Shown here: positions 368 through 19,300 of the stretch, piece by piece
Position numbering within the stretch: the stretch's first letter is position 1
Layout of the letters: each line of letters starts with the position of its first letter
Assembly (NCBI GenBank): GCA_036378175.1
Contig: DASUWY010000049.1
Location: forward strand, 1-24,000
Source: Thermoleophilaceae bacterium
Lineage (GTDB): Bacteria > Actinomycetota > Thermoleophilia > Solirubrobacterales > Thermoleophilaceae
Length of the DNA: 24,000 nucleotides
Direction: 5' to 3'
Position numbers and translations under genes: made by a program
Notes under the pieces: generated by a model
Databases searched by the model: none
The model's input: only the letters and a program-made list of their open reading frames with translations
What the model was told of the DNA's origin: nothing

Positions 368-1609
368 ATGTCCGCGGCTAGCCAGAGCGTCGCAGTGGTG
401 GGCCTCGGCCGCATCGGCCTCCCGCTGGCGCTGTCGTTCGCGGATCGCGGGCTCGACGTGGTGGGCGTGGACAAGGTGCCGGCCGTGCTCGAGTCGATCT
501 CGTCCGGCCGCATGCCGTTCGACGAGCCGGGCACGCAGGAGCTGCTCGATGGCGCGCTCGAAGGCCGCCGGCTGCGGCTCACGCACCGCATCGAGGAGGC
601 GGCCGGGTGCGACCACATCGTGCTCACGATCGGCACGCCCGCCTTCAGCCACATCGAGATCGACATCTCGGACGTGCGCAGCGTCACCGACGACCTGCTG
701 CCGGTCCTCCGCGAGGGTCACTCGCTGATCCTGCGCTCCACCGTCGCGCCCGGCACCACCGACTGGATGGCGGGGTACATCGAGCAGCGGCGCGGATTCA
801 CCGCGGGCGACGACATCTTCGTCTCGCACGTGCCCGAGCGGATCGCGGCCCACCGCTTCCTCGAGGAGATCTCAACGCTGCCGTGCATCATCGGCGGCGT
901 CGGAACCGGCTCGGGCGCGAAGGCCGCCGAGCTGTTCGAGGTGTTCGGCACCGAGATCGTGCAGACCACGCCGGTGCAGGCCGAGCTGGCGAAGATCTGG
1001 ACGAACATCTTCCGCTACGCCACCTTCGCGCTTCCCAACCTGCTGATGATGGATTGCGATCAGCACGGCGCGAACGTGTTCGAGGTGATCGACCTGATCA
1101 ACCACGACTACCCGCGCGGCGGCATCGGCCGGCCGGGCCTCACCGCCGGGATCTGCCTGCGCAAGGACTTCACCTTCAGCGAAGAGCGCTCGAACGCGCC
1201 CGGGATGCTGCTCGCCGTGTCGCGCGTGCACGAGAGCGTGCCGCGCTTCCTCGTGGAGGGGCTGAAGCGGCGACTTGGCGGCTCGCTGCGCGATCGGAAG
1301 GTGGCGGTGCTCGGCCTCACCTTCAAGCGCGACTCCGACGACACTCGCGACTCGCTCTCCTACAAGCTCATCCGCCTGCTCGACCGCGAGCTGGCACACG
1401 TGTCGCGGCACGATCCGTTCGTGCCCGCGGAGTCGGAGCCGCTCGACACCGCGCTCGCGGGCGCGGACGCGGTGGTGATCGCCACCAACCACTCCGCCTA
1501 CGAGCACGTGCTGTCCCAGGTGCCGAGGAGCGCGCTGCTGGTGGACCCGTGGAACGTCACTGGCTCGGCGCAGGTGTTCGCGTACGCGGACGAGCTCGTC
1601 TCCACGTGA
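368..1609 (+). CDS. nucleotide-sugar dehydrogenase (UDP-glucose/GDP-mannose dehydrogenase family)
   Basis: 413-aa ORF. Rossmann N-terminus VAVVGLGRIGLPLALSFADRGLDVVGVD. Catalytic-Cys segment GLTAGICLRKD. C-terminal domain signature VLGLTFKRDSDDTRDS. A -10-like TAAGGT (356-361) lies 6 nt before the ATG. Confidence 0.85.
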   Translation: MSAASQSVAVVGLGRIGLPLALSFADRGLDVVGVDKVPAVLESISSGRMPFDEPGTQELLDGALEGRRLRLTHRIEEAAGCDHIVLTIGTPAFSHIEIDISDVRSVTDDLLPVLREGHSLILRSTVAPGTTDWMAGYIEQRRGFTAGDDIFVSHVPERIAAHRFLEEISTLPCIIGGVGTGSGAKAAELFEVFGTEIVQTTPVQAELAKIWTNIFRYATFALPNLLMMDCDQHGANVFEVIDLINHDYPRGGIGRPGLTAGICLRKDFTFSEERSNAPGMLLAVSRVHESVPRFLVEGLKRRLGGSLRDRKVAVLGLTFKRDSDDTRDSLSYKLIRLLDRELAHVSRHDPFVPAESEPLDTALAGADAVVIATNHSAYEHVLSQVPRSALLVDPWNVTGSAQVFAYADELVST

Positions 1610-2556
1610 TCCTCATCACGGGGGTAGCGGGGTTCGCCGGGACCCACCTGGCTCGCCTGTGCGCGCAGCGCGGAATCGAGGTGGCGGGCCTCGGACGGCA
1701 TCCGCGGGTCGATCTGCCCGGCGTGTCGGTGTACGAACAGGTGGACCTCCACGACGGCCGCGCGGTGCGAGACGTGGTCTCGCGCCTCAAGCCCAAGCAG
1801 GTGGTGCACCTCGCGGCGCAGGCGTCGGTCGCCCGCTCATGGGAGACGCCCGGCGAGGTGATCTCCTCGAACGTCACCACGTCACTCAATCTGCTCGAGG
1901 CGGTGCGGCTCGAGGCACCGGACACCCTCGTGCTCGTGGCCTGCTCGGGCGAGGAGTACGGGCGCCCGCAGAGTCTTCCGGTGGACGAGAGCCATCCACT
2001 CTCGCCGCGTAACCCCTATGCCACGAGCAAGGCGATGGTGGACGTTCTCGCCGGCTCGTACGTGGAGATGCACGGCATGCGGGTGCTCCGCGCGCGGGCG
2101 TTCAACCACGCGGGGCCGGGCCAGTCGGACACCTACGTTGTGGCGCGCTTCGCCCGCCAGGTGGCGGAGGCCGAGGCCGCGAGGCCCGCCGACGGCCGCG
2201 CGGTGATCGTCACCGGCAACGTGGACGTGCGGCGCGACTTCTGCGACGTGCGCGACGTGGTGCGCGCGTACCTGGTGGCGCTCGAGCAGGCGGAGGCGGG
2301 CGTTTTCAACGTCTGCAGCGGGCGGGCCACGCGCGTGTCCGACATACTCTCCGGCCTTGCGGCGCACAGTCCCCTCGAACTGGAGTGCCGCGTAGACCCG
2401 TCCCTGCTGCGAGAGAACGAGGTGATGGAGATCAGGGGCTCCCATGAGAGGCTGACCGAGGTGACCGGCTGGCGGCCGGAGATCGACCTGAGCGACACGC
2501 TGCGCGACACCCTCGACTGGTGGCGCGAGCGGGTGGCCGCCGAGGTGGCGCGATGA
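1606..2556 (+). CDS. rmd: GDP-4-dehydro-6-deoxy-D-mannose reductase-like extended SDR (Rmd-like)
   Basis: GTG 1606 overlaps the upstream stop (GTGA). 316 aa with ILITGVAGFAG (GxxGxxG), HLAAQASV, CSGEEYG, YATSK (YxxxK), AFNHAGPGQS, VRRDFCDVRDVV and FNVCSG. It is colinear with my recollection of Rmd and sits directly upstream of gmd. The upstream 333 codons of track ORF 607..2556 are an out-of-frame shadow of the dehydrogenase. Confidence 0.7.
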   Translation: MILITGVAGFAGTHLARLCAQRGIEVAGLGRHPRVDLPGVSVYEQVDLHDGRAVRDVVSRLKPKQVVHLAAQASVARSWETPGEVISSNVTTSLNLLEAVRLEAPDTLVLVACSGEEYGRPQSLPVDESHPLSPRNPYATSKAMVDVLAGSYVEMHGMRVLRARAFNHAGPGQSDTYVVARFARQVAEAEAARPADGRAVIVTGNVDVRRDFCDVRDVVRAYLVALEQAEAGVFNVCSGRATRVSDILSGLAAHSPLELECRVDPSLLRENEVMEIRGSHERLTEVTGWRPEIDLSDTLRDTLDWWRERVAAEVAR

Positions 2557-4577
2557 GCTCCGAGCAGCGGCGCGCGCTCGTCACGGGCGTGACGGGCCAG
2601 GACGGCAGCTACCTCGCCGAGCTCCTGCTCGAGAAGGGCTACGAGGTGCACGGCATGGTGCGGCGCGCATCCACCGAGACCTTCCAGCGCCTTCAGCACA
2701 TCCGGGACCGCATCACCCTCCACACCGGCGACCTGCTCGACCAGCGCTCGCTCGGCGACGTGATGCGGGAGTGCGAGCCGCACGAGATCTACAACCTCGC
2801 GGCGATGTCGTTCGTGGCAGCGTCGTGGAACCAGCCGGTGCTCACGGCGGACTTCACCGGCGTGGGTGTGACGAGGATGCTCGAGGCAATGCGCGAGGCG
2901 GCCCCGGACGCCCGCTTCTACCAGGCGTCGTCCTCGGAGATGTTCGGCAAGGTGCGCGAGGTGCCGCAGACCGAGCAGACGCCGTTCTACCCGCGCAGCC
3001 CGTACGGCGTGGCGAAGGTGTACGGGCACTTCATCACGGTGAACTACCGCGAGTCGTATGACCTTTTTGCCTGCTCGGGAATCCTGTTCAACCACGAGTG
3101 CGTGTCTTCCAGCACGCCCCTCATGGTGCGCGAGAACGGCGTGTTCGCGATCAGGACGCCGGCGGACTTGGTGCCTTACCGGCGCAGGGGACCGAGCAGC
3201 CAGACCTTCGAGCCGAGCGGCTTGCTCGAGATCTGGGCAGGCGAGGACTGGACACGGGTCACGGCGATCACGGCCACCCGGCGCCGCCGCACCGATCCGG
3301 ACCACGAGCTGCTCAGCATCGAGACGCGTGGCGGGGTGGTGCAGGCAACTGCGCATCACACGATGCTCGATGCAACAGGGGAAGGAGTGCGGGCCGCGGA
3401 TGTCGAGGAGGGCGACGAGCTTTACGTAACCGACGAGCTTCCCGAGGCGCCGATCTGGACCGCGGTGACCAACGAGCTCGCCGAACTGCTCGGCCTTCTC
3501 GCCGCCGACGGGTTCGTCGCACGCGATGGCACCAGCATTTGCTTCACCAACAACGACGCCGCTCTTCGCATGCGCGTCGCGCAGCTCTGGTCGAAGACGT
3601 TCCTCGGCACGTCGCACGAATGGATGGGACGCACCGGCTGGACTGAGAACGCGCAGGTTGGGAAGCTCAACCTGAACGGCGGCGCGTCGCTCGCCCCGTG
3701 GCTGCGCGAGCAGCTCTACACCCCCACCGGTCACAAGCAGGTTCCGCCGATCATCCTCAACGCGGACTCGCCTTTGCAGGAGTACTTCCTCGAGGGCTAC
3801 TACGCCGGCGACGGCCTGAAGAGGGGCAAGGGCGAGAGCATCAAGACGAACAGCGCAGTGCTCGCTCAGGGGCTTGTATGCCTCTACCACTCGCTCGACC
3901 AACCCGCGTCCGTGTACGTGGAGCAGCGCGCCGGGAAGTGCTACTACCAGCTCAACCTCGCGTCGCGGGCGTCGGTCTACAGCGGCAAGGGCGCGCACCT
4001 GCGGAAGCCGCCGCAGGAGGTTCGACGCATCATCCCGGCGGAGGTCGACGACGACGAGTGGGTGTTCGACATCGAGACTGAGGCCGGGGTTTTCAACGCC
4101 GGTGTGGGCCGGCTTGTGGTGCACAACTCGCCGCGTCGCGGGCTGGAGTTCGTCACCCGCAAGGTCACCCACACAGCGGCCGCGATCAAGCTCGGCCTCG
4201 CCGATGAGCTCGCGCTCGGCAACATGGACGCACAGCGCGACTGGGGCTATGCCAAGGACTACGTCGAGGCGATGTGGATGATGCTCCAGCAGGACGAGCC
4301 GGACGACTACGTGATCGCCACCGGCGAGGCGCACAGCGTGCGCGAGCTGGTGGACATCGCCTTCGCCCACCTCGATCTCGACCCGGACGACTATGTGCGG
4401 ATCGATCCGCGCTTCATGCGTCCCGCCGAGGTGGACCACCTGATCGGCGACTACTCCAAGGCGAAGGAGAAGCTGGGCTGGGAGCCCCGCACGAGCTTCG
4501 AGGAGCTCGTGAAGCTCATGGTCGACTCCGACCTGGAGCTCCTGCGCAGCGGAGTGCCCACGCAGCAGGCGGGTTGA
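2553..4577 (+). CDS. gmd: GDP-mannose 4,6-dehydratase precursor carrying an in-frame intein (182-aa N-extein + 343-aa intein + 149-aa C-extein)
   Basis: ATG 2553 overlaps the rmd stop (ATGA). N-extein motifs: ALVTGVTGQDGSYLAELLLEKGYEVHG, FYQASSSEMFG, SPYGVAKVYG, GILFNHE. C-extein motifs: SPRRGLEFVTRKVT, LGNMDAQRDWGYAKDYVEAMWMMLQ, DYVIATGE. Spliced length is 331 aa, which is typical for Gmd. Confidence 0.92.
   Translation: MSSEQRRALVTGVTGQDGSYLAELLLEKGYEVHGMVRRASTETFQRLQHIRDRITLHTGDLLDQRSLGDVMRECEPHEIYNLAAMSFVAASWNQPVLTADFTGVGVTRMLEAMREAAPDARFYQASSSEMFGKVREVPQTEQTPFYPRSPYGVAKVYGHFITVNYRESYDLFACSGILFNHECVSSSTPLMVRENGVFAIRTPADLVPYRRRGPSSQTFEPSGLLEIWAGEDWTRVTAITATRRRRTDPDHELLSIETRGGVVQATAHHTMLDATGEGVRAADVEEGDELYVTDELPEAPIWTAVTNELAELLGLLAADGFVARDGTSICFTNNDAALRMRVAQLWSKTFLGTSHEWMGRTGWTENAQVGKLNLNGGASLAPWLREQLYTPTGHKQVPPIILNADSPLQEYFLEGYYAGDGLKRGKGESIKTNSAVLAQGLVCLYHSLDQPASVYVEQRAGKCYYQLNLASRASVYSGKGAHLRKPPQEVRRIIPAEVDDDEWVFDIETEAGVFNAGVGRLVVHNSPRRGLEFVTRKVTHTAAAIKLGLADELALGNMDAQRDWGYAKDYVEAMWMMLQQDEPDDYVIATGEAHSVRELVDIAFAHLDLDPDDYVRIDPRFMRPAEVDHLIGDYSKAKEKLGWEPRTSFEELVKLMVDSDLELLRSGVPTQQAG
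3099..4127 (+). mobile_element. LAGLIDADG-type (class 1) intein inserted in gmd between NHE and SPRRG
   Basis: Starts with Cys1 (CVSSSTPLMV, block A). Block B TxxH is present as ATAHHTM. Two LAGLIDADG motifs: LGLLAADG at 3489-3512 and FLEGYYAGDG at 3786-3815. Blocks F/G are WVFDIETEAGVFNAGVGRLVVHN, ending His-Asn, followed by Ser+1 (4128). Length is 1029 nt, in frame. Confidence 0.9.
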
Positions 4578-4578
4578 C

Positions 4579-5550
4579 GTGACGCGAGTGCTCGTGACCG
4601 GCGGCGCCGGCACGATCGGCACCGCGGTGGTGAAGCGGCTGCTGCGCGAGGACGGCATCGACGTGCGCGTGTCCGATCAGCGCACGCCGCCCGACTGGAT
4701 GCGCGACGCGTGCGAGGTTCACACGGGCGACCTTCGCGACCACGCCGAGGCGCGCGACGCCGCGCGCGGCTGCTCGCGCGTGATCCATCTCGCCGCGATC
4801 GTGGGCGGCATCGCCAACTTCCACAAGCTGCCGCACACGCTCCTCGAGGTGAACACGGGCCTCTACAACGCCGTGTTCCGCGCGGCGCTGGAGGAGCGCG
4901 TCGACCGCCTTGTGTACGTGTCGTCGTCGATGGTGTTCGAGCGCGCCACGCAGTACCCCACAACCGAGGCGCACATCGCGGACACGCCGATCCCGCAGTC
5001 GGCGTACGGGTTTTCGAAGCTCGCGGGCGAGGTCTACTGCCACGCGCTGCACGACGAGCACGGGCTGCCCTTCACCATCTGCCGCCCATTCAACGCCTAC
5101 GGCCCCGGCGAGATGCCCGAGGACGAGCCGGGCATCGCCCACATGGTGCCGGACGTGATCCGCAAGGTTCTGTCGGGTCAGAAGCCGCTCCAGATCTTCG
5201 GCTCGGGCGAGCAGACGCGGACGATCACGCACGTGGACGACATCGCCGACGGCATCGTCACCGCGATGTCGCACCCGGCGGCCGAGAACGAGGACTTCAA
5301 CATCTCCGCCAAGGAGGAGATGACGGTGGCCGAGATCGCGCGCGTGATCTGGGAGGAGTGCGGCCGGGCGCCCGAGGACTTCGAGCTCGAGCACCTGCCC
5401 ACGTTCGAGGTGGACGTGCAGCGCCGCTGGCCGTCGGTGAGGAAGGCGCGCGAGCTCCTCGGCTGGGAGGCGAAGATCGGCGTGCGCGAGGGGATCGCGC
5501 AGACGATCGGGTGGCTGCGCGAGCAGGACGGCGTGCCCAGCGGGGATTGA
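4579..5550 (+). CDS. NAD-dependent epimerase/dehydratase family protein (extended SDR; possibly GDP-sugar epimerase/reductase)
   Basis: 323 aa. Starts with GTG 1 nt after the gmd stop. Motifs: VLVTGGAGTIGTAV (GxxGxxG), IHLAAIVGG, YVSSS, YGFSK (YxxxK), RPFNAYGPG. The LAAxxGGxxxF plus PxSAYGxxK pattern is reminiscent of GDP-mannose 3,5-epimerase-like enzymes, but specificity cannot be assigned by eye. Confidence 0.8.
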   Translation: MTRVLVTGGAGTIGTAVVKRLLREDGIDVRVSDQRTPPDWMRDACEVHTGDLRDHAEARDAARGCSRVIHLAAIVGGIANFHKLPHTLLEVNTGLYNAVFRAALEERVDRLVYVSSSMVFERATQYPTTEAHIADTPIPQSAYGFSKLAGEVYCHALHDEHGLPFTICRPFNAYGPGEMPEDEPGIAHMVPDVIRKVLSGQKPLQIFGSGEQTRTITHVDDIADGIVTAMSHPAAENEDFNISAKEEMTVAEIARVIWEECGRAPEDFELEHLPTFEVDVQRRWPSVRKARELLGWEAKIGVREGIAQTIGWLREQDGVPSGD

Positions 5551-5610
5551 CTCGCTCGCGCCGGCCGATTTACGGTTGGGGCAAGGCTCGCAACCAAAAG
5601 GAGGCCCCCT

Positions 5611-5913
5611 TTGGCAAGTCCGCCTGTGCATCTTCTGCCCCACGTGCTCAAGGCCGGCGGCGTCCCTGCAGTGATCGGAGCCGTAGCCGCCGGGATCCTG
5701 TCGTTCCCGCAGAGCGAGACCTCGATCAACTCTCTGGGACTGGCCGTGACCACCTACCACAGCACCCTGACCGGCTCTGGGCTCACGGCTGAGGCGGCCG
5801 TGTTCGCGATGATTGGCTGCGTGATCGTCGGTGGGCTGATCGGATTGGGAGTGGGGTTCCTGCTCATCGCCACCGGGATCGCCCGGGCGAAGGACCTGGG
5901 CATGGAGGAATAG
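5611..5913 (+). CDS. small hypothetical membrane protein (two predicted TM segments)
   Basis: TTG start preceded by the best SD in the window (AAAGGAGG 5597-5604, 6-nt spacer). Hydrophobic stretches GVPAVIGAVAAGILSF and AAVFAMIGCVIVGGLIGLGVGFLLIATGI. GC3 is high. No recognisable family. Confidence 0.5.
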   Translation: MASPPVHLLPHVLKAGGVPAVIGAVAAGILSFPQSETSINSLGLAVTTYHSTLTGSGLTAEAAVFAMIGCVIVGGLIGLGVGFLLIATGIARAKDLGMEE

Positions 5914-6333
5914 GTGGCCGAAATTCCGGAGGCGGCCCGCGAGCTGCTCGAGTCGGACGCGCTCGTCCATCTCGTCACGATCAACCCGGACGGCAGCCCG
6001 CAGATGAGCGTCGTGTGGGTGGGGGTGGACGGCGGCGAGATCGTCTCCGGCCACCTGCCGCTGCACCGCAAGCTGCGCAACATCCAGCGCGACCCGCGCG
6101 TGAGCCTGTCCGTGGAGGGACGTGGGCTCAACAGCATCGGCCTGCGCGAGTACCTGGTGGTGCACGGTCGCGGTCGCGTCGAGGAGGGCGGCGCGCCCGA
6201 GCTCCTCCAGCGCCTCGCGCACGTCTACCTCGGCCCGGAGGTGAAGTTCCCCCCGATGGACGACCCGCCGCCGGGCTACATCCTTCGCATCACACCAGAG
6301 CGCTTCGGAGGGGTGGGACCGTGGACGGAGTGA
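5914..6333 (+). CDS. PPOX-class (pyridoxamine 5'-phosphate oxidase fold) probable F420-dependent enzyme
   Basis: 139 aa. LLESDALVHLVTINPDGSPQMSVVWVGVDGGEIV...KLRNIQRDPRVSLSVEG matches the split-barrel PPOX/F420 family pattern. GTG start immediately follows the upstream TAG. Confidence 0.7.
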   Translation: MAEIPEAARELLESDALVHLVTINPDGSPQMSVVWVGVDGGEIVSGHLPLHRKLRNIQRDPRVSLSVEGRGLNSIGLREYLVVHGRGRVEEGGAPELLQRLAHVYLGPEVKFPPMDDPPPGYILRITPERFGGVGPWTE

Positions 6334-6875
6334 TCGAGGACCCGGTTCTGCGGCAGCGCCTGAGCTTCACCCGCACCACCGACGAGGACGGGAGGGAGGT
6401 TCTCCACGTGGAGACGTGGGTTGATCCCGGCGGCGGCGTGACGCCTCACATCCACCCGGCGATGGAGGAGCGCTTCGAAGTGCTGTCCGGCGAGGCCAGC
6501 TTCCTCTCCGGGAAGAAGTGGGTGGCCGCCGGTCCCGGCGAGACCGTGGTGGTGCCGCCGGGCACTCGGCATGCGTACCGCAACAAGTCGAACGGCGAGG
6601 TGCACATGGTGTGTCACGTGCGCCCGCCGTCCACGCTTCAGGAGTTCCTCGAGGACACGGTGCGGCTGAGCCGGTCTGGCGGGCTCACGCGGCACGCGAT
6701 CCCCAAGTCTCTGCACGCCCTCCTCGAGGGAATGGTGATGGCGCACGCCTACCGCGACATGGTCACCCTGCTCTTTCCGCCCTTCCCCCCTCCGGCGGTT
6801 CAGCGGCTCATCGTGCCGCCGCTCGCCCGCCTCGGCGCCCGGCGCGGGATTCGCGCCGGACATATCGCTGAGTAG
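6330..6875 (+). CDS. cupin domain protein
   Basis: GTG 6330 overlaps the upstream TGA (alternative GTG 6321). Cupin motifs GGGVTPHIHPAMEERFEVLSGEASF and VVVPPGTRHAYRN. The first 105 codons of track ORF 6015..6875 are an out-of-frame shadow. Confidence 0.7.
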   Translation: MIEDPVLRQRLSFTRTTDEDGREVLHVETWVDPGGGVTPHIHPAMEERFEVLSGEASFLSGKKWVAAGPGETVVVPPGTRHAYRNKSNGEVHMVCHVRPPSTLQEFLEDTVRLSRSGGLTRHAIPKSLHALLEGMVMAHAYRDMVTLLFPPFPPPAVQRLIVPPLARLGARRGIRAGHIAE

Positions 6876-8392: not shown

Positions 8393-9190
8393 ATGCCAGA
8401 GGTCGCAGAGAGGCCGCAGATCGGATCGCTTCTACGTGACTGGCGCGAGCGCCGGCGCATGAGTCAGCTCGACCTCGCCCTCGGCGCGGGCGTGTCGGCG
8501 CGTCACGTGAGCTTCATCGAGACCGGCCGCTCGCGCCCGAGCGCCGAGATGGTGGTGCAGCTCGCCGAGCACCTCGACGTGCCGCTGCGCGACCGCAACG
8601 CGCTGCTGCTCGCGGCCGGGTATGCGCCCGCATACGGGCAGCGCGACCTGGCGGAGCCGGAGATGGGTCCGGTGCGCGAGGCGATCGACCGGGTGCTGCG
8701 CGGTCACGAGCCCTATCCGGCGGTGGTGGTGGATCGGCACTGGGGACTCGTGGCTGCCAACCGCACTGTGCCGCTGCTCACGGAGGGCGCCGCGGAGCAT
8801 CTGCTCGAGCCGCCGGCAAACGTGCTCCGCCTCGCACTCCACCCGGAGGGCATAGCGCCGCGGATCGTGAACCTGGGCGAGTGGCGCGCTCACCTGCTCG
8901 ACCGCCTCGGCCGCCAGGCGGTGGCGAGCGGCGACCCCGCGCTGTTCGCGCTCCACGACGAGCTTGCGAGCTACCCGGGCGGCGGCGAGGGCCACACGGT
9001 GGACCTCGAGGCGAGCGAGATCGCAGTGCCGCTTCGCATCCGCGCGGATGGCGCCGAGCTCTCCTTCATCAGCACCGCCACCACCTTCGGCACGGCGGTG
9101 GATGTGACGGTGTCCGAGCTGTCGATCGAGTCCTTCTTCCCCGGCGACGACGGCACGGCTCGCTTCCTGCAGGAGACAAGCCTTACCTAG
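8393..9190 (+). CDS. XRE-family HTH regulator with MmyB-like ligand-binding domain
   Basis: LRDWRERRRMSQLDLALGAGVSARHVSFIETGRSRPSAEMVVQLAEHLDVPLRDRNALLLAAGYAP, then PYPAVVVDRHWGLVAAN. This is the typical MmyB-family layout. A -10-like TAGGTT (8380-8385) lies 7 nt before ATG 8393, suggesting a leaderless start. Alternative start GTG 8357. Confidence 0.8.
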   Translation: MPEVAERPQIGSLLRDWRERRRMSQLDLALGAGVSARHVSFIETGRSRPSAEMVVQLAEHLDVPLRDRNALLLAAGYAPAYGQRDLAEPEMGPVREAIDRVLRGHEPYPAVVVDRHWGLVAANRTVPLLTEGAAEHLLEPPANVLRLALHPEGIAPRIVNLGEWRAHLLDRLGRQAVASGDPALFALHDELASYPGGGEGHTVDLEASEIAVPLRIRADGAELSFISTATTFGTAVDVTVSELSIESFFPGDDGTARFLQETSLT

Positions 9191-10056
9191 GCGCGATGCG
9201 GCGCCGACGCGGTGACCAGCTCGGCCACCGCCTCGAGCGGCCCGGAGCGCAGCCGCTCAGCGCCCACGTGCTCGGCGAGCGCATCGTCGGCCCCGGCGCC
9301 GGCCAGGAACACGTTTCGCTCCTTGGCCAGGGTCGCAAGCCGCCGCGCCACGCTGTGGAGCGGCTCAGGCGAGAGGGCGGCCACCACAACGGCATCCGGC
9401 TCGAGCTGCGCGCTCGCCGCGGCCAGCGTGTCGATAGGCGTGTCGGCGCCGAGGAAGGTGATGCGCCAGCCGATGCCACGAAGCGCGATGCCGAAGGCCA
9501 CGAGGCCAAGGTCATGCCGCTCACCAGGGGCGCACGCGAGCAGGGCGAGCGGTCCGACCCCGCGGTCCCAGCCGCGCGCGAGGGCCAGCAGCCGCTCCCG
9601 CAGGAGGGTGGATGCGAAGTGCTCCTGGGCCACGGAGGCGTCGCCGCTGCCCCAGCGGTCGCCGAGCAGGCGGAGGTAGGGCAGCACCGCCTCGCGCAGC
9701 AGCGTCTCGACGGTGAAGTCCGCCACCAGCCGGTCGAACGCCGCCTGGGCGCGCGCATTGTCGAATGCGTCGAGCGATGCCCATAGCTCTGCGGCATGGT
9801 CGGCCGCGCCGTCGCCGGGGGGCGCCGCCGCCCCGCTTCGAGCCAGGCCGGCCGCCTCGGCGGCGGACAGGCCCTGCGCGATGTGCGCCCGCATCGCCTG
9901 CACACGGGCGAGGTCGTCCTCCGAGTAGAGCCGGTAGCCCGAGGCGGTGCGCGCCGGCTCGAGCAGCCCGTAGCGGCGCTCCCACGCTCGCAGGACGTCG
10001 GCGCTCACCCCCGCCCGCCGAGAAAGCTCCCCTATGCGCAGCCGGGCCTCTTCCAT
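9187..10056 (-). CDS. litR: MerR-family regulator with cobalamin-binding domain, CarH/LitR-type (AdoB12-dependent photoreceptor-like)
   Basis: 289 aa. MerR HTH: LRIGELSRRAGVSADVLRAWERRYGLLEPARTASGYRLYSEDDL. Wx9EH motif: W135-GSGDASVAQ-E145-H146 (9619-9654). B12 lower-ligand motif ExHxxG: E179-R-H181-D-L-G (9505-9522), followed by GWRITFLGADTP. A -10-like TATACT (10064-10069, minus) lies 7 nt before the ATG. Confidence 0.85.
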   Translation of the reverse strand: MEEARLRIGELSRRAGVSADVLRAWERRYGLLEPARTASGYRLYSEDDLARVQAMRAHIAQGLSAAEAAGLARSGAAAPPGDGAADHAAELWASLDAFDNARAQAAFDRLVADFTVETLLREAVLPYLRLLGDRWGSGDASVAQEHFASTLLRERLLALARGWDRGVGPLALLACAPGERHDLGLVAFGIALRGIGWRITFLGADTPIDTLAAASAQLEPDAVVVAALSPEPLHSVARRLATLAKERNVFLAGAGADDALAEHVGAERLRSGPLEAVAELVTASAPHRA

Positions 10057-10063
10057 TGGGCGG

Positions 10064-10092
10064 AGTATAGACCTTAGACGAATTTTAGACAA
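10064..10092 (-). promoter_or_regulatory. putative litR promoter (leaderless): -35 TTGTCT, 17-nt spacer, -10 TATACT
   Basis: On the minus strand, TTGTCT is the complement of 10087-10092 and TATACT is the complement of 10064-10069. ATG 10056 lies 7 nt downstream of the -10. Confidence 0.5.
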
Positions 10093-10103
10093 ACTCTTGA
10101 CAC
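10071..10103. promoter_or_regulatory. three tandem 11-bp-phased direct repeats T(A/T)GAC(A/G): candidate CarH/LitR operator
   Basis: TAGACG 10075-10080, TAGACA 10086-10091, TTGACA 10097-10102, with exactly 11-bp spacing. An extra off-phase TAGAC lies at 10068-10072. The repeats overlap both -35 boxes. Confidence 0.5.
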
Positions 10104-10126
10104 AGGGCGAGAATGTCGCCTATTCT
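10097..10126 (+). promoter_or_regulatory. putative promoter of the FAS1-heliorhodopsin operon: -35 TTGACA, 18-nt spacer, -10 TATTCT
   Basis: Consensus -35 at 10097-10102. TANNNT-type -10 at 10121-10126. The region is AT-richer than its surroundings. Confidence 0.55.
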
Positions 10127-10131
10127 GTCGC

Positions 10132-10147
10132 AACCCTGTCCAGGGTT
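10132..10147 (+). promoter_or_regulatory. perfect palindrome AACCCTG-TC-CAGGGTT at the predicted transcription start / 5' UTR
   Basis: Read directly from the sequence. It lies 6 nt downstream of the -10. It could be a 5' stem-loop or a second operator. Confidence 0.35.
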
Positions 10148-10177
10148 TGTTCATTCCCGTCCCACAAGGAGCACCCC

Positions 10178-10702
10178 GTGACCACCTCGATCCTCCGCAA
10201 GCGATCCGTCGCCACGCTCGTCGCCGGCGCGGCGCTCACCGCCACGGTGGCCGCACCGGTTGCGGCCTCGCCCGCGGCGGGGCCGGCCGCCAAGCGCACC
10301 AACATCGTGAACACCGCCGTGAAGGCCGGCCAGTTCAAGACGCTCGTCGCGCTGGTGAAGCGCGCCGGGCTCGCGAAGACGCTGTCGGCCGGGGGCCCGT
10401 ACACCGTGTTCGCCCCCACGGATGCCGCCTTCAAGAAGGTCCCCAAGAGCACGCTGAACGCTCTCCTCAAGGATCGCGCGAAGCTGCGCGCCGTTCTCCT
10501 GTACCACGTGGCCAAGGGCCGGCTGACCTCGAAGAAGGTCGTGAAGCTCAAGGCCGTGAAGACGCTGAACGGCCAGTCGCTGAGCGTGCGTGCGCGCAGC
10601 GGCGGCGTGTTCGTGGGCGGCGCGAGGGTGACCACGCCCGACGTGCGCGCCTCGAACGGCGTGATCCACGTGATCAACAGGGTGCTGGTGCCCCAGAGCT
10701 AG
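10178..10702 (+). CDS. secreted fasciclin (FAS1) domain protein
   Basis: GTG start with SD AAGGAG (10166-10171, 6-nt spacer). Signal peptide: RKRSVATLVAGAALTATVAAPVAA. FAS1 motifs: IVNTAVKAGQFKTLVALV, YTVFAPTDAAF, LLYHV, NGVIHVINRVLVP. 174 aa. Confidence 0.85.
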   Translation: MTTSILRKRSVATLVAGAALTATVAAPVAASPAAGPAAKRTNIVNTAVKAGQFKTLVALVKRAGLAKTLSAGGPYTVFAPTDAAFKKVPKSTLNALLKDRAKLRAVLLYHVAKGRLTSKKVVKLKAVKTLNGQSLSVRARSGGVFVGGARVTTPDVRASNGVIHVINRVLVPQS

Positions 10703-10720
10703 CCGGTCGAACGACCGGCT
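10701..10720 (+). terminator. GC-rich hairpin overlapping the FAS1 stop codon (possible attenuator or processing site; no U-tract)
   Basis: AGCCGGTCG-AA-CGACCGGCT. Effectively a 7-8 bp stem with a GAAC loop, followed by CTCGCC rather than a T run. Confidence 0.25.
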
Positions 10721-10788
10721 CTCGCCGAGCGCGCCCGGCGCGGCATGCCCCGTGCCGTGCCGGGCTCAGCTCGGCCCCCCTACACACG

Positions 10789-11598
10789 ATGACCGCCACC
10801 ACTGAACTTCCGAACGGCAGCCCGACGGCAACCCGCTCGCGCTTCGCGCGCCTGCGGGCCTTCAACCTGACGATGGGCGGGCTGCACCTCGCCCAGGGCC
10901 TGGCGATGCTCGCGCTCGCCACGTCCTTTGCGCTGCCCGTCACCTCCTCGTTCCTCGAAATGAGTGGAACCACCGGCAAGCTCGAGCCCGACCTGCAGGA
11001 GCTGCTCACCATCCGGCTTGCCCCGCTCGTGGCCGCGTTCCTCTTCATCTCCGCGGTCGCGCACCTCACGCTGAGCCTGCCGCGCGTGTACGACTGGTAC
11101 CTCGCGAACCTGCGCCGCGGCGTGAACTACGCCCGCTGGGCCGAGTACTCCGTCTCCTCCTCGGTGATGATCGTGGTGATCGCGATGCTCGTGGGCATTT
11201 ACGACATCGCGGCGCTGATCCTGCTGTTCGCACTCAACGCCACGATGATCCTGTTCGGCTGGCTGATGGAACTGCTGAATCAGCACACCCGCCAGACGAA
11301 CTGGCTGCCGTTCTGGTTCGGCAGCTTCGCCGGCGCGGTGCCGTGGATCGCGATCGGCATCTATCTCTTCGGCGCCGGCTCCGGCGGGTCCGGCGGCCCG
11401 CCCACGTTCGTCTACGTGATCTACGGATCGCTGTTCGTCTTCTTCAACGTGTTCGCGATCAACATGCTGCTTCAGTACAAGCGGGTCGGCCGTTGGCGCG
11501 ACTACCTGTTCGGCGAGCGGGTGTACATCCTGCTCAGCCTGACTGCCAAGTCCGCGCTTGCCTGGCAGGTGTTCGCCGGCACGCTGCGGCCGGTGTAG
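10789..11598 (+). CDS. heliorhodopsin (retinal-binding 7-TM protein, HeR family)
   Basis: 269 aa, colinear with my recollection of heliorhodopsin 48C12. Motifs: GGLHLAQGLAMLALATSFALP (His33), ISAVAHL (His92), RWAEYSVSSSVMIV (Glu119, codon 11143-11145, counterion position), MILFGWLME, LPFWFGSFAGAVPWI, FVYVIYGSLFVFFN, GERVYILLSLTAKSALAWQVFAGTL. The last contains Lys254 (codon 11548-11550) at the Schiff-base position. Confidence 0.92.
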   Translation: MTATTELPNGSPTATRSRFARLRAFNLTMGGLHLAQGLAMLALATSFALPVTSSFLEMSGTTGKLEPDLQELLTIRLAPLVAAFLFISAVAHLTLSLPRVYDWYLANLRRGVNYARWAEYSVSSSVMIVVIAMLVGIYDIAALILLFALNATMILFGWLMELLNQHTRQTNWLPFWFGSFAGAVPWIAIGIYLFGAGSGGSGGPPTFVYVIYGSLFVFFNVFAINMLLQYKRVGRWRDYLFGERVYILLSLTAKSALAWQVFAGTLRPV

Positions 11599-12313: not shown

Positions 12314-12909
12314 CGGCGCTCTAGCGCGAGCCGCACGCCGAGGCCCACCAGAACCGCACCGGTCGCGCGCTCGAAGCGCCGCAGCCACGGCCCCTCCACG
12401 AACGCCCGCCGCGCCCGCGCCACGAGATAGGCGAGCACCGAGTACCACACGAGGTCCACCGCCACGATCGTGCACGCCATCAGCAACGCCGCCGGCAGCA
12501 CGGGCGCCCCATGCGGCACGAACTGCGGGAAGAGCGCGACGAAGAACGCGGCGAGCTTGGGATTTGCGATCGAGGTGACCACGCCGTCGCGCAGCGCGGA
12601 GCGGCTGAGCGGCGCCCGCGGCAGCTCGCCACGACCTCGGAGCGACTGCACTCCCAGGTAGATCAGAAACACCGCGCCGATCAGCTTCATCACCGTGAAC
12701 ACCTCCGCGGACGCCGCCACCACCGCGGCGATGCCGAGCGCGGCGAAGCAGCCCCACGCCAGGACCCCGAGCGAGTTGCCAACCGTGGTGAGCAGCGCGT
12801 CGCGCCGGCCCGCGCGCGCCGCGTTCCGCACCACGAGCGCCGTGGCCGGACCGGGCGCGAGCGACAGCAGCGCAGCAACCGGAGCGAAGGCTATGAGCGT
12901 GCGCATCAT
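12310..12909 (-). CDS. LysE/RhtB-family amino-acid (or small-molecule) exporter
   Basis: 199 aa. LSLAPGPATALVVRNAARAGRRDALLTTVGNSLG and TSIANPKLAAFFVALFPQFV are typical LysE-family motifs. The start overlaps the upstream GT stop. Confidence 0.85.
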   Translation of the reverse strand: MMRTLIAFAPVAALLSLAPGPATALVVRNAARAGRRDALLTTVGNSLGVLAWGCFAALGIAAVVAASAEVFTVMKLIGAVFLIYLGVQSLRGRGELPRAPLSRSALRDGVVTSIANPKLAAFFVALFPQFVPHGAPVLPAALLMACTIVAVDLVWYSVLAYLVARARRAFVEGPWLRRFERATGAVLVGLGVRLALERR

Positions 12910-14045
12910 GAGCTGGTCACCCGAGCGTAGAGGTCGAGCAGATTTTTCGTAAAGCGCTCGCGGCCGTAGTGCTCGTGCACCCTCGCGATCAGCTCATTTC
13001 CATCGGCGTGCCGCCGCTGCCGATCGCCCCAGAGCTCCCGCAGCCGCTCGGCCATCGCGGCCGCGTCGCCGCGCGGCACACACCGATCCTCCCCCACGAG
13101 CTCTGGCAACGCGCCCGCCCGCGTGGCGATCACCGGCACGCCAGCCCCCATCGCCTCGAGCGCCGAGAGCCCGAACGACTCGTCGCTGCGCGACGGCACG
13201 AGCACCACCGCGGCGCGGCGCATCAGCTCGCCAAGCTCCCCGGGCGGCACGCGGCCGAGCAGCTCCACTCGGGTCGACGAGAGCCGCGCCCGCTCGGCGA
13301 TCGCTTGGTGGAGCGGCCCGTCGCCCACCACCTTGAGCGGCACGCCGGCGAGCCCGGCGGCGTCGATCGCCATCTCCACTCCCTTCTCGCCGGACAGCCG
13401 TGCCACCACCAGCGCGAACTCGCCACCGTCCGCGCGCGACTCGGAGGCGAGCCCCTCATCCGGCAGGTAGTGCGGCAGCGGCTCCACCCGGTCATCGGGC
13501 ACGCCGAGCCGCACGAGCTGACCCACGGCGTAGCTGCTCGGCGCGACGAAGCGGTCCACCACCTCGAGCACGTGCGGGTACTGGCGCGACAGTGCCGCCG
13601 CGTACACCGCCGCCTCCGGCAGCGAGCGCCGGCAGTTCAGCACGAGTCCCGGGATCGTCCGCCCGTGATGGCAGCGGAAGCAGGGCTCGCCGAGCCGGAA
13701 GGCCACGCCGATCGCGCAGAACAGGCGGAAGTTGTGTAGGTGGAGCACCACGCGGGCGCCCTCCGCGCGCGCGGCGGCAAGCGCCCGTGGCCCGAAGAGA
13801 GGTTGCATGTTGTGCGCGTGCACCACGTCGGCGCCGAAGTCGCGAACCGCACGCGCCACCGCCTCCGGCTCGTCACCGCCGCGCAGCATCGCGCCGGCCG
13901 CGCGCGCACGTCCCGCCTGCGCCGAGTCGCGCACGAGCGCCCTGTGCTCGACACCCGCCTGGCGCAGCGCATCCAGGTGCAGCTCGAGCGCCCGCTCCTC
14001 ACCTCCCTGCAGCCGGTAGCGGTTGTGGAGGACGAGGACCTTCAT
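12906..14045 (-). CDS. glycosyltransferase family 4 (GT-B fold)
   Basis: 379 aa. MKVLVLHNRYRLQGGEE N-terminus. C-terminal VARLSGEKGV and PSRSDESFGLSALEAMGAGVPVIATRAGALPELV (E-x7-E region). Confidence 0.85.
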   Translation of the reverse strand: MKVLVLHNRYRLQGGEERALELHLDALRQAGVEHRALVRDSAQAGRARAAGAMLRGGDEPEAVARAVRDFGADVVHAHNMQPLFGPRALAAARAEGARVVLHLHNFRLFCAIGVAFRLGEPCFRCHHGRTIPGLVLNCRRSLPEAAVYAAALSRQYPHVLEVVDRFVAPSSYAVGQLVRLGVPDDRVEPLPHYLPDEGLASESRADGGEFALVVARLSGEKGVEMAIDAAGLAGVPLKVVGDGPLHQAIAERARLSSTRVELLGRVPPGELGELMRRAAVVLVPSRSDESFGLSALEAMGAGVPVIATRAGALPELVGEDRCVPRGDAAAMAERLRELWGDRQRRHADGNELIARVHEHYGRERFTKNLLDLYARVTSS

Positions 14046-15037
14046 CGGATCCCAAGCGCGGGCAGCAGCTCCTCGGCCACCACGCGCTGCACCGCTGCGG
14101 GGCGGAATGGCGCGAGCAGCTCACGCGCCTGTGCGGCATAAGCGTTGCGGTCGCGCAGGTCGAGCCCCGCGCGCAGCGCCGAGGCGAGGTCCTCCGACAC
14201 GAGCTCGGGCGCGAGGCGGCGTGCCAGCGGCAGCGCCTCATACGGTCCCGGCGACGGCACGGTGACGAGCACGCAGCCCGCCGAAAGCGCCTCGAGCTGG
14301 GCGAGGCCGTGGTCCTCGCGGCGCGAGGCGTTCACGAACACCCGCGAGCGCGCCACGAGCCCGAGCCATTCGTCGCGCCCGAGCTGTCCCGGCCACTCCA
14401 CGCCCGGCGGCTCCGGCCGGCCACGGCGCTCGAGCCAGCGCAACGCGCGCTCATGCTCCACGCCGCCGATCACCAGTCGCTCGCCCTGCCGCGACGCCTT
14501 CGCCCATGCCGCGCACAGCACGTCCAGACCGCGCTTGTGCGGATAGCCCGCGTACGCGATCGCGTGGATGTCCCGCTGCGGGCCATCCGGTATCTCCTCG
14601 ATCGGCACCCGCACGACCAGTCCCTGCCCAGCCTGCGCACCCCACGGCAGGAGCAGCGAGGCATTGCGCAGCACCGTCCGCTCACGTGCTCGCTGCCATG
14701 CGCCGGATACGCCCGGCCGGTTCATAGCCGCCTTCGAGTCGAACCTCACAGCCCACGGCACCTGAGGCGTGCGCTGAAGAAGCGCGGCGGTCACGCTCGA
14801 GAAGATGAGTGCCCGCGCGTCCACCTCCCGGGCGGCCCGGCGCGCCCCCAGCGCCTCCACGAGATCGGTCACCGCAGCGTTGCGCCGCAGCGCGGCGGCG
14901 GCGCGCCCGATGCGCACCGGCGCGACCTCGCAGCTCGCGCCTGCCGCGCGGATCTGCTCCGCCAGCGCGGCGTCCGCGCGTGTCAGCCCCGGCGTGGTGC
15001 CGAGCGATACGAGCCCGATGTCCACGGTCCCGGCCAC
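14042..15037 (-). CDS. glycosyltransferase (GT-B fold, GT1/GT4-like)
   Basis: C-terminal ASRREDHGLAQLEALSAGCVLVT (E-x7-E). The stop overlaps the downstream GT4 ATG (ATGA). The start is uncertain: GTG 15037 (TAGCCT -10-like element 8 nt upstream) or GTG 15025. The track start ATG 15112 is rejected because the extra codons have poor GC3 (about 12 of 30 end in A/T). Confidence 0.7.
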   Translation of the reverse strand: MAGTVDIGLVSLGTTPGLTRADAALAEQIRAAGASCEVAPVRIGRAAAALRRNAAVTDLVEALGARRAAREVDARALIFSSVTAALLQRTPQVPWAVRFDSKAAMNRPGVSGAWQRARERTVLRNASLLLPWGAQAGQGLVVRVPIEEIPDGPQRDIHAIAYAGYPHKRGLDVLCAAWAKASRQGERLVIGGVEHERALRWLERRGRPEPPGVEWPGQLGRDEWLGLVARSRVFVNASRREDHGLAQLEALSAGCVLVTVPSPGPYEALPLARRLAPELVSEDLASALRAGLDLRDRNAYAAQARELLAPFRPAAVQRVVAEELLPALGIR

Positions 15038-15049
15038 AGCCGGGCAGGC

Positions 15050-15219
15050 TAAATGACTGACTCCGAATCGACGTGTCACTGGGGGCGCGACAGGCCCAGC
15101 AGGGCGCCGCACGCTGACGAAGCCGATAGCAGAGGAGCTATCGGTGAGGAGGTGGGTGGCGATCCTGCGCCGGCATGGCGCGTCATCCAGGGGCGCGGCG
15201 ATGAGGAGTCAGTCATTTA
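15050..15219. repeat. 170-bp intergenic unit bounded by a perfect 15-bp inverted repeat (TAAATGACTGACTCC ... GGAGTCAGTCATTTA)
   Basis: Arms at 15050-15064 and 15205-15219 are exact reverse complements. The next 18 nt inward match 12/18. Each arm sits immediately upstream of a TANNNT element and the start codon of one of the two divergent GT operons. Confidence 0.8.
15123..15144. repeat. perfect 8-bp inverted repeat CCGATAGC-AGAGGA-GCTATCGG near the centre of the 170-bp unit
   Basis: Read directly from the sequence. Its centre (15133.5) is within 1 nt of the centre of the outer 15-bp repeat pair (15134.5). Confidence 0.7.
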
Positions 15220-15233
15220 TTTAACCTGCGCGC

Positions 15234-16079
15234 GTGTCTGCGCAGCCCGTGGTGTCCGTGGTGGTGCCCACGCACGATCGGGCCGAGTACCTCGCCGTCA
15301 CGCTCGATTCGCTGAACGCGCAGGACATCGAAGCCCCGTACGAGGTGGTGGTAGTGGACGACGGCTCGGTGGACCAGACGCCCGCGGTGGCCCACCGCGC
15401 CGAAGCCGGCTACATGCGGCTCGAGCGCGCCCGCGGCGTGAACGCCGCCCGCAACGAGGGGGCACGCGCGGCGGCCGCGGACCTCATCGCGTTCGTGGAC
15501 GACGACGTGTACGCGCCGCCCGGCTGGCTGCGAGCACTCGTGGACGGCGCCCAGCGGCATCCGGACGCGGAGGCCCTCGGCGGACCCATTCGCGCGCGTT
15601 TCGAAGGACCCGCGCCGCGTTCGTGCGGCCGCGAGCTGCCGCCCATCACCACGCTCGATCTCGGCCCGGAGGACCGCGAGGCGGAGCTGGTGTGGAGCGC
15701 GAACATGCTGGCCCGAAGGTCGGCGTTCGCGCGGGTGGGCGAGTTCGACGAGTCCCTCCCCACCGGCGGCGACGAGGAGGACTGGCTGCGACGCCTCCGC
15801 GCCGAGGGCGGGAAGGTGATCTACGTGGCCGCGGCGGGGCTTGACCACCGGCGCGCGGGCGACGACGCGCGGCTCCGTTCGCTGATGCGCTCCGCCTACT
15901 TCCGCGGTCGCAACCTGCGCGCGTACGACGAGCGGCGCGGCGTCCAGCCACCGCTGTCGCGCGAGCTTCTGACGCTGGCGGGCTGCGGCTGGCACACGGT
16001 GCGCCGCGGCTGCCCGCAGGGGCTCGTGATGGGAGCGCACTCGGCCGGCCGGACGATCAGGGCGGTGCGCGGCCGGTGA
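15234..16079 (+). CDS. glycosyltransferase family 2 (GT-A fold)
   Basis: 281 aa. VSVVVPTHDRAEYLAVTLDSLNAQ, VVVVDDGSVD and FVDDDV (DxD). GTG 15234 is the first possible start after an in-frame TAA (15222-15224). No SD. TAACCT (15222-15227) lies 6 nt upstream. Confidence 0.85.
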   Translation: MSAQPVVSVVVPTHDRAEYLAVTLDSLNAQDIEAPYEVVVVDDGSVDQTPAVAHRAEAGYMRLERARGVNAARNEGARAAAADLIAFVDDDVYAPPGWLRALVDGAQRHPDAEALGGPIRARFEGPAPRSCGRELPPITTLDLGPEDREAELVWSANMLARRSAFARVGEFDESLPTGGDEEDWLRRLRAEGGKVIYVAAAGLDHRRAGDDARLRSLMRSAYFRGRNLRAYDERRGVQPPLSRELLTLAGCGWHTVRRGCPQGLVMGAHSAGRTIRAVRGR

Positions 16080-19175: not shown

Positions 19176-19300
19176 CCGATGCATATTGCTAGCCTGAAGA
19201 AGGAACGGCCGTCCACGGCTCTTTTTGCCGTCACCGCAATGCGCGTGGCGCTGGCCCGGGAGTTGTGTAGATAGTCGCCCGACAGGGGAAGGTCCCATTC

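Follow-up and report, generated by a model that had tools for sequence, protein, structure and literature searches.

Why should a gene for GDP-mannose 4,6-dehydratase (Gmd) encode 674 residues when 331 of them already make up the enzyme? This question is raised by a 24,000-nucleotide stretch of Thermoleophilaceae DNA (GenBank assembly GCA_036378175.1, contig DASUWY010000049.1, positions 1 to 24,000, forward strand; hereafter the window), in which the gmd reading frame is split by a 343-residue insert at a site written here as NHE↓S, the arrow marking an insertion point or junction. Our analysis indicates that positions 3099..4127 very probably encode a genuine class-1 intein equipped with a LAGLIDADG homing endonuclease, that is, a selfish mobile element carried in frame in gmd. 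An initial annotation, made from the sequence alone, had proposed such an element, and the proposal is now supported by the predicted fold, homology, residue conservation and the existence of empty-site alleles. From these data we infer both the splicing competence and the present-day endonuclease activity of the intein.

The gmd gene and its insert

The architecture of the gene, as annotated from its open reading frame (ORF), from an AlphaFold2 (AF2) model of the insert and from its homologues, comprises the following features:

2553..4577 (+): gmd precursor ORF (N-extein, intein and C-extein), 674 codons plus TGA, with no internal stop or frameshift
2553..3098 (+): N-extein, 182 aa, with Rossmann GxxGxxG, catalytic SSE and YxxxK; ends in GILFNHE; 93% identical to the N-extein of the nearest intein-bearing locus, L001
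3099..4127 (+): intein, predicted class-1 Hint splicing domain with embedded LAGLIDADG homing endonuclease (AF2 model, Foldseek, homologues)
3099..3101 (+): block A nucleophile Cys1 (TGC)
3348..3359 (+): block B, T84-A-H-H87 (TxxH)
3429..4010 (+): predicted homing-endonuclease domain, about intein residues 111-304, boundaries approximate (model secondary structure, Pfam, Foldseek)
3477..3512 (+): LAGLIDADG motif 1, LAELLGLLAADG (LLAAD137G, predicted catalytic D137)
3780..3815 (+): LAGLIDADG motif 2, EYFLEGYYAGDG (YYAGD238G, predicted catalytic D238)
4056..4100 (+): block F, EWVFDIETEAGVFNA, with the F-block Asp D324
4107..4127 (+): block G, GRLVVHN, with penultimate His342 and terminal Asn343
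4128..4577 (+): C-extein, 149 aa plus stop; its first residue is the +1 nucleophile Ser (TCG, 4128-4130) of SPRRG

The ATG at 2553 overlaps the upstream stop codon as ATGA, and the gene ends with TGA at 4575-4577. The insert, located by script, occupies codons 183-525 between FNHE and SPRRG. Its upstream junction is TTCAACCACGAG↓TGCGTG (TTC AAC CAC GAG ↓ TGC GTG) and its downstream junction is GTGCACAAC↓TCGCCGCGTCGC (GTG CAC AAC ↓ TCG CCG CGT CGC); removing it from the ORF leaves a 331-aa protein. The ORF, the insert coordinates (3099-4127), the 343-aa length and the 331-aa spliced Gmd given in the initial annotation were exact to the base, and each residue that it named (Cys1, TAHH, LAADG, YAGDG, the terminal His-Asn and Ser+1) is present where it was placed.

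Identification of the host protein as a GDP-mannose 4,6-dehydratase is solid on the basis of its sequence. With the intein still in place, the precursor matches the Pfam family GDP_Man_Dehyd (PF16363) at 4e-133 and the NCBIfam equivalog TIGR01472 with 441.5 bits against a cut-off of 415, and both matches are broken in two by the insert. The host carries the Gmd motifs GVTGQDG (GxxGxxG) from residue 12, SSE within QASSSEMFG from residue 124, and YGVAK (YxxxK) from residue 151. Once spliced in silico, the protein aligns with the Gmd of Pseudomonas aeruginosa (1rpn, E 5e-129) with no gap through the junction.

The GC content at third codon positions (GC3) is 95.1% in the N-extein, 87.2% in the intein and 92.0% in the C-extein (N-extein versus intein, Fisher p = 0.004), in agreement with the roughly 95% and 87% that had been counted by hand for N-extein and insert. 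The other ORFs of the window, a set kept only if GC3 exceeded 0.85, span 86-95%. Since the intein lies within this range, it is no compositional outlier and GC3 says little on foreign origin, which removes the ground on which the insert had been called foreign but largely ameliorated.

Fold and homology of the insert

Intein blocks were defined as in PMC7765530. Searched against Pfam, the insert matched LAGLIDADG_3 in two stretches (3e-9) and Hom_end below its cut-off (1e-3); phmmer against PDB sequences returned weak matches only, to a V-ATPase intein (0.015) and to PI-PkoII (0.08). Because profile hidden Markov models (HMMs) revealed only the endonuclease part, structure prediction and a fold search were used. 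AF2, supplied with a 47-sequence alignment of the intein family, produced a model with pLDDT 93 and pTM 0.92. Its best Foldseek match in the PDB was the TliVMA intein 7qsu (E 1.8e-21, TMq 0.66), followed by 7qss, PhoVMA 7qst, PI-PkoII 2cw7, PI-PfuI 1dq3 and PI-SceI 1vde, and the alignments to intein-endonuclease structures extend over 386-559 columns. The central part was matched by the free-standing LAGLIDADG enzymes I-DmoI, I-SceI and I-Tsp061I, and the Hint part by the Pab PolII mini-intein 2lcj.

The centre of the model is made up of two halves of alpha-beta-beta-alpha-beta-beta-alpha topology, and a LAGLIDADG helix opens each of them. In terms of helices (H) and strands (E), the first half consists of H125-137, E138-140, E147-150, H154-168, E171-178, E186-193 and H199-206, and the second of H224-238, E247-250, H253-265, E270-277 and E280-287. 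Homology points in the same direction: in an exhaustive phmmer search the insert matched family-B DNA polymerase (PolB) inteins over its whole length at 25-30% identity (E 1e-21 to 1e-31), and in one of these proteins, P0221, the stretch matched by the insert (420-725) coincides with the Pfam Intein_splicing domain (415-725).

The insert thereby presents the features of a class-1 intein, namely block A, TxxH, the block F Asp, a terminal Asn, a +1 nucleophile, a predicted Hint fold and exact removability, together with those of a two-motif LAGLIDADG endonuclease, that is, two helices with acidic ends and a predicted pseudo-dimeric fold.

Residue conservation and selection

Conservation was counted in 62 close family members that include both junctions and are 51-89% identical to the window intein. 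The splicing residues are strongly retained: position 1 is Cys in 54 and Ser in 7; in block B, T84 is Thr in 61, and H86 and H87 are each His in all 62; D324 and T327 of block F, like the terminal Asn at position 343, are found in 62/62; and the penultimate position is His in 51, Ser in 10 and Lys in 1. Similar retention is seen in the endonuclease domain, where position 137 is always acidic (Asp 57, Glu 5), position 238 is Asp in 61/62, and K213, K241 and T250 are also kept in at least 61/62. On the host side, Ser occupies +1 in all 106 intein-bearing junctions scored. Among the distant Gmd inteins, Ser or Thr can stand in place of Cys1.

Within the close family, the first and penultimate residues co-vary, with a Ser-Asn C-terminus in 7 of 8 Ser1 inteins and His-Asn in 50 of 54 Cys1 inteins. 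The Ser1 group may represent a subfamily with altered splicing chemistry.

Comparison of the window with L001 by the Nei-Gojobori method gave ratios of nonsynonymous to synonymous substitution rates (dN/dS) of 0.14 for the intein, 0.12 for its endonuclease part and 0.10-0.15 for the exteins; by this measure the intein, endonuclease part included, is under purifying selection. The synonymous rate itself (dS) was 0.84 for the intein, more than twice the 0.33-0.38 of the exteins, which fits separate histories for the two.

Empty sites among close relatives

When the spliced 331-aa extein was used as the query, the best 120 matches were all intein-less Gmds of 319-348 aa (nearly all 327-331) with full coverage and 84-94% identity. 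As a contiguous query ranks intein-less proteins first, no intein frequency can be read from this search. Over all 331 residues, identity between the spliced extein and intein-less Gmds reaches 94%, and the alignment runs ungapped through the junction. Two intein-less loci were compared with the window together with their surroundings, L010 and L011 (the latter from Thermoleophilaceae metagenome-assembled genome [MAG] GCA_036494715.1); the nucleotide identity of the spliced window gene to both is 88-89%. These loci preserve the order seen in the window: nucleotide-sugar dehydrogenase, short-chain dehydrogenase/reductase (SDR), gmd, SDR. In L011 the genes beyond the last SDR (a PNPOx-like gene, then a cupin, an MFS transporter and an MmyB regulator) are also largely as in the window.

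The empty sites read TTCAACCACGAA↓TCAGAGCGTCGG in L010 (TCAGAG after the junction) and TTCAACCACGAG↓GGGCCGCGGCGC in L011, where GGGCCG follows the junction, Gly stands at +1 and gmd occupies 5001..5996. Presence in some close relatives and absence from others means that the intein is not a fixed domain. A conserved, non-excised domain of active Gmds had been named in the initial annotation as a finding that would speak against an intein, and what we found instead are 94%-identical, syntenic Gmds without the insert.

The target motif, which had been described as an invariant NHE↓SPRRG, turned out to vary among close intein-less alleles (SPRRG, SERRG, SQRRG, SSRRG, SARRG and G[PE]RRG). Alleles of the last type, with Gly at +1, account for 7/120 intein-less and 0/106 intein-bearing sequences (Fisher p = 0.015, kinship not accounted for). 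Since Gly is unable to act as a splicing nucleophile, an intein inserted at such an allele would inactivate Gmd, and the Gly+1 allele is possibly an intein-refractory one.

A neighbour-joining tree of 8 intein-bearing and 119 intein-less exteins requires at least four changes of intein state, a count that depends on the sampling discussed below. For the window, the nearest intein-less extein is 94.0% identical and the nearest intein-bearing one 92.4%; the corresponding values are 94.9% and 92.4% for L001, and 93.6% and 88.2% for L002. Intein and extein pairwise identities are only weakly correlated among 57 full-length members (Spearman 0.31). For instance, a cluster named Anaerolinea is 69% identical to the window in its extein and 35% in its intein, and P0122 is 38% identical in its extein and 47% in its intein. 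The patchy presence on the extein tree fits homing. Taken together, these results speak for an element that is repeatedly gained by homing, or precisely lost, more than for a fixed domain.

A model for splicing and homing

The splicing steps proposed here follow the canonical pathway and the residues present. After translation of the 674-aa precursor, Cys1 would form a thioester with Glu182 through an N-S acyl shift, assisted by Thr84 and His87 of block B. The hydroxyl of Ser+1 would then attack this thioester, giving a branched ester by trans-esterification. Cyclisation of Asn343, with the help of His342 and of Asp324 in block F, would free the intein, and an O-N shift would ligate FNHE to SPRRG, yielding the active 331-aa Gmd.

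The location of the insert suggests what splicing would be needed for. In BceN, the conserved Arg190 has been described as orienting GDP-mannose and NADP+ (PMC3584063); mapped by offset from YxxxK only, it corresponds to R185/R186 of the spliced protein. The insert would therefore lie 3-4 residues before a conserved substrate- and cofactor-orienting Arg, and by analogy the unspliced precursor is probably inactive.

Once freed, the intein would cut intein-less gmd alleles site-specifically around TTCAACCACGAG↓TC, and repair of the break from an intein-bearing copy would transfer the intein. Homing of this kind would explain how one site comes to be occupied in divergent Gmds of several phyla, yet empty in very close relatives.

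A family of inteins at the same Gmd site

With the intein as the query, a database clustered at 90% identity yielded 297 proteins. The best 120 of these are close matches, all of them Gmds with the insert at the NHE↓S site and 51-89% intein identity; the named sources among them are Thermoleophilaceae, Solirubrobacteraceae, Conexibacter, Trebonia and Beggiatoa sp. PS. Wherever the junction is visible in close homologues, it reads FNHE↓[C/S]... ...N↓S[P/E/I]RG. An exhaustive search of representatives at 50% identity gave 968 matches at E <= 1e-3, of which about 60 are full-length Gmds of 650-770 aa that carry the intein at exactly the same Gmd residues as the window, at intein identities of 25-47% and extein identities of 32-70%. 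The survey of gmd homologues for this insertion site that the initial annotation had called for thus returned more than 100 close and about 60 distant examples at NHE↓S.

Phyla and genera in which Gmd inteins were seen at NHE↓S include Actinomycetota, Chloroflexota (the Anaerolinea cluster) and Beggiatoa. Among GTDB representatives we identified nine intein-bearing loci, all in Thermoleophilaceae or Solirubrobacterales MAGs; the nearest, L001, has the same SDR-gmd-SDR order, with an intein 82% identical and exteins 93% and 91% identical to those of the window. An exact-sequence look-up of the precursor itself gave no match on record. Judged from the homology searches, the insertion is not unusual in sequence databases but is a real, ordinary element of a large same-site family. 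The earlier view that a sugar-nucleotide SDR is an unusual host holds for the classical literature, but not for the databases, where there are hundreds of alleles and 968 matching representatives; a Thermosynechococcus gmd intein has also been mentioned in print (PMC9403480).

Two Gmds contain two inteins each, P0147 (1087 aa) and P0238 (1043 aa, from a very AT-rich organism): one at NHE↓S and the other just before the catalytic [ST]SE. The second-site junctions are QAS↓S...HN↓SSEMFG in P0147 and NAG↓C...GN↓SSEEFG in P0238, which means that inteins insert at two or more sites in Gmd.

Related inteins of 27-34% identity also occur outside Gmd, in P0177, P0187 and P0192 (~660-680 aa) and in P0244 (751 aa). 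In extended SDR sugar-nucleotide enzymes that are not Gmds, all scoring below the gmd cut-off, the related intein lies at the homologous loop (F[TN]H↓S...HN↓TGPRRG or SGLRR), and one GT1 glycosyltransferase carries a related intein at FMH↓S...HN↓SD. These occurrences suggest that inteins have moved between target sites that are paralogous or resemble each other locally. A search for intein vectors among phages and plasmids gave one weak match to an uncultured jumbo phage (27% identity) and none in plasmids, and so no evidence of a phage or plasmid vector.

Two further observations concern the gene in individual genomes. In L007, a Solirubrobacteraceae MAG, an intein-less gmd paralogue (5494..6453, 44-47% identity) directly follows the intein-bearing gmd, so Gmd activity there would not hinge on splicing. 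In addition, intein-bearing gmd genes from MAGs are frameshifted in P0017, P0048, P0088, L008 and L009, three of them at about the same place in the C-extein, just after AAIKLGL. In L008 and L009, both MFD MAGs, the shifts run throughout the gene, exteins and intein alike, and systematic sequencing error is their likely cause. The idea that intein-bearing gmd genes are often pseudogenes was rejected as unproven, given the appearance of the L008 and L009 shifts and the intact gene of the window.

Weighing the alternatives

Several points weigh against the conclusion that this is a class-1 intein with a homing endonuclease. The Hint and Intein_splicing models of Pfam and NCBIfam gave no match to the insert at E <= 1, and the Hint assignment accordingly comes from the predicted fold and from transitive homology. 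The F-block His is absent across the whole family, although its lack belongs to the known, tolerated variation among inteins. Purifying selection on the endonuclease part could be due in part to a requirement that the intein fold and splice, and not to nuclease activity, and a weaker codon bias (GC3 of 87% versus 95%), instead of separate ancestry, could be the source of the higher intein dS. Finally, the extein tree is a quick neighbour-joining tree, built from a sample picked for similarity to the window and biased towards intein-less sequences by the contiguous query. With regard to the profiles, the initial annotation had proposed a search of the 343 aa and had listed the lack of a Hint-domain HMM hit among the results that would count against it. 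The search recovered LAGLIDADG_3 and neither Hint nor Intein_splicing; formally, that adverse result was obtained, but the fold match and the phmmer matches to stretches that Pfam labels Intein_splicing weigh more.

The alternative that survives best, though we regard it as rather unlikely, is an intein that still splices but no longer moves: its endonuclease would have ceased to cut, inheritance would be vertical, and losses by precise deletion would account for the patchiness. Inactive endonucleases are common among described inteins, the close family clusters in a single order-level group (Thermoleophilia / Solirubrobacterales), and conservation of the endonuclease part could be structural. 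However, both LAGLIDADG acidic residues persist alongside K213, K241 and T250 in at least 61/62 members, and the endonuclease-part dN/dS of 0.12 is as low as that of the exteins. Vertical inheritance is also hard to reconcile with a site that is occupied in Gmds of only 32-50% extein identity, with intein and extein similarities that are poorly coupled, and with three loci whose closest allele is intein-less rather than intein-bearing. A mobile intein is the reading that we prefer.

Compatible with a mobile intein, as an added layer, would be redox-, temperature- or metabolite-dependent splicing that gates the supply of GDP-4-keto-6-deoxymannose; we consider this improbable. Conditional protein splicing does exist for other inteins (PMC7765530), the insert adjoins the Arg loop that orients substrate and cofactor (PMC3584063, by offset), which makes an inactive precursor probable, and the allele has long persisted in several phyla. 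On the other hand, selfish inteins as a rule occupy conserved functional sites, a preference that can be understood without any regulatory role, and very close relatives manage the same operon without an intein. The cysteines do not fit a switch either: Cys148, Cys261 and Cys281 of the intein and Cys(-9) of the N-extein are all variable in the family consensus, so that no partner for a Cys1 disulfide is conserved within the intein or near the junction; with Ser at +1, no Cys1-Cys+1 disulfide can form; and Cys1 itself gives way to Ser in 7/62 close members, and to Ser or Thr among distant relatives. The initial annotation had gone further and placed the whole glycan locus under a redox- or temperature-sensitive splicing checkpoint. 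This claim is speculative and found no support, in view of the missing conserved second Cys, the Ser+1, the near-identical operons lacking an intein, and a glycan cluster that lies ~7 kb away. Conditional splicing is possible but unsupported.

Far less probable still is an unusual Gmd in which the 343 aa stay in place as an accessory domain, or in which they act as a bacterial intein-like (BIL) domain, cleaving the protein but not ligating it. The lack of a direct Hint HMM match could be cited in its favour, but all splicing nucleophiles are conserved, including the +1 Ser, and the terminal Asn never varies. BIL domains occur in variable regions of non-conserved proteins and have no conserved +1 nucleophile, whereas this insert, as is typical of inteins, interrupts a highly conserved motif of a conserved enzyme. 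Furthermore, 94%-identical alleles lack exactly this insert, and the predicted fold is that of endonuclease-bearing inteins. An assembly or chimera artefact joining an intein-like ORF into gmd, for which we found no point in favour, is negligible, as over 100 contigs and MAGs, independent of one another and drawn from different projects, have the same in-frame architecture at the same codon, and the reading frame of the window gene is continuous, with exact junctions.

Genomic neighbourhood

The intein-bearing gmd lies among other sugar-nucleotide genes, and a glycan cluster is found further downstream:

368..1609 (+): nucleotide-sugar dehydrogenase (TIGR03026, 1.5e-81), in the same position in the intein-less L010 and L011
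1606..2556 (+): extended SDR of the FNHAGPGQS type, below every equivalog cut-off; its GTG start overlaps the upstream stop
4579..5550 (+): extended SDR epimerase/reductase with a weak GDP-fucose-synthase-like match
12906-22550: glycosyltransferase / Wzy / methyltransferase cluster

The four sugar-nucleotide genes of 368..5550 are tightly packed, with a GTGA overlap at 1606..1609, an ATGA overlap at 2553..2556 and a single base between the gmd stop and the next GTG, an arrangement that suggests a translationally coupled operon. The ~7 kb between this operon and the cluster at 12906-22550 hold genes for a cupin, an MFS transporter, two regulators, a fasciclin protein, a heliorhodopsin and a GFA-domain protein. 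The heliorhodopsin gene lies in the ORF 10147..11598(+) (Pfam PF18761, 3e-101); the match spans residues 236-480, which places the real start probably near 10850. Next to it are a MerR-family regulator with B12-binding domains, of the LitR/CarH-like light-sensor type (9187..10092(-)), and the fasciclin-domain protein (10034..10702(+)). The segment 9187..11598 is possibly a light-sensing neighbourhood.

Comparison with known inteins

In the same host enzyme, a full-length gmd intein has been mentioned in passing, with no insertion site given, for Thermosynechococcus sp. TA-1 / CL-1 (PMC9403480, 2022). Like the window intein, it has an embedded homing-endonuclease domain and is patchy among close strains; unlike it, it belongs to Cyanobacteria and not Actinomycetota, and the comparison covers host enzyme, domain architecture and distribution as described in that paper.

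The best structural matches, with Foldseek E-values of 1.8e-21 to 1e-11, are the archaeal VMA inteins (TliVMA / PhoVMA 7qsu, 7qss, 7qst) and PI-SceI 1vde. These share a Hint domain interrupted by a two-motif LAGLIDADG endonuclease, Cys1 and a terminal His-Asn, but their sequence identity is only 14-20% and their host is an ATPase. At 343 aa the window intein is compact compared with the matched chains of PI-SceI, PI-PfuI and PI-PkoII, which have 425-537 residues. The nearest sequence relatives outside sugar-nucleotide enzymes are PolB inteins (PI-PkoII 2cw7 and the metagenomic P0183, P0186, P0191 and P0221), which have the same block order but reside in replication proteins, often several to a protein, and at an unrelated homing site.

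Inteins in nucleotide-sugar metabolism, as opposed to replication or repair, have a precedent in the UDP-GlcDH inteins, with 10 archaeal UDP-glucose / GDP-mannose dehydrogenase inteins among the entries of one survey (PMC4760082; Novikova et al. 2016); the main text of that survey does not list Gmd among intein hosts. These inteins, compared by host enzyme only, differ in residing in a dehydrogenase fold, not an extended SDR dehydratase, and in Euryarchaeota.

Significance

The size and spread of the Gmd intein family, the QAS↓SSE site, the relatives in SDRs and GT1, and the Gly+1 alleles may be new to specialists. Read jointly, they could describe a large, essentially undescribed 'glycan-metabolism' intein family that spans several phyla, uses QAS↓SSE as a second site, jumps to SDRs and GT1, and meets intein-immune Gly+1 alleles, with regulated splicing that gates deoxyhexose supply as its stronger version; we put this joint reading forward tentatively, as possible rather than probable. 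The finding of an intein in Gmd leaves the established view of intein or Gmd function unchanged.

Its consequences for annotation are more immediate. Gene callers and the NCBI and JGI pipelines label precursors of ~670 aa plainly as GDP-mannose 4,6-dehydratase, and the intein needs to be annotated, and removed before length, structure or phylogeny is inferred. A compact, 343-aa intein with Cys1, Ser+1 and an endonuclease could serve as a protein-engineering part or a rare-cutting nuclease. For intein biology, this family offers a well-populated case of homing-endonuclease inteins outside the network of replication, repair and ATPase proteins, and the many occupied and empty alleles within the same soil lineages make it a convenient natural system for the homing cycle of gain and loss.

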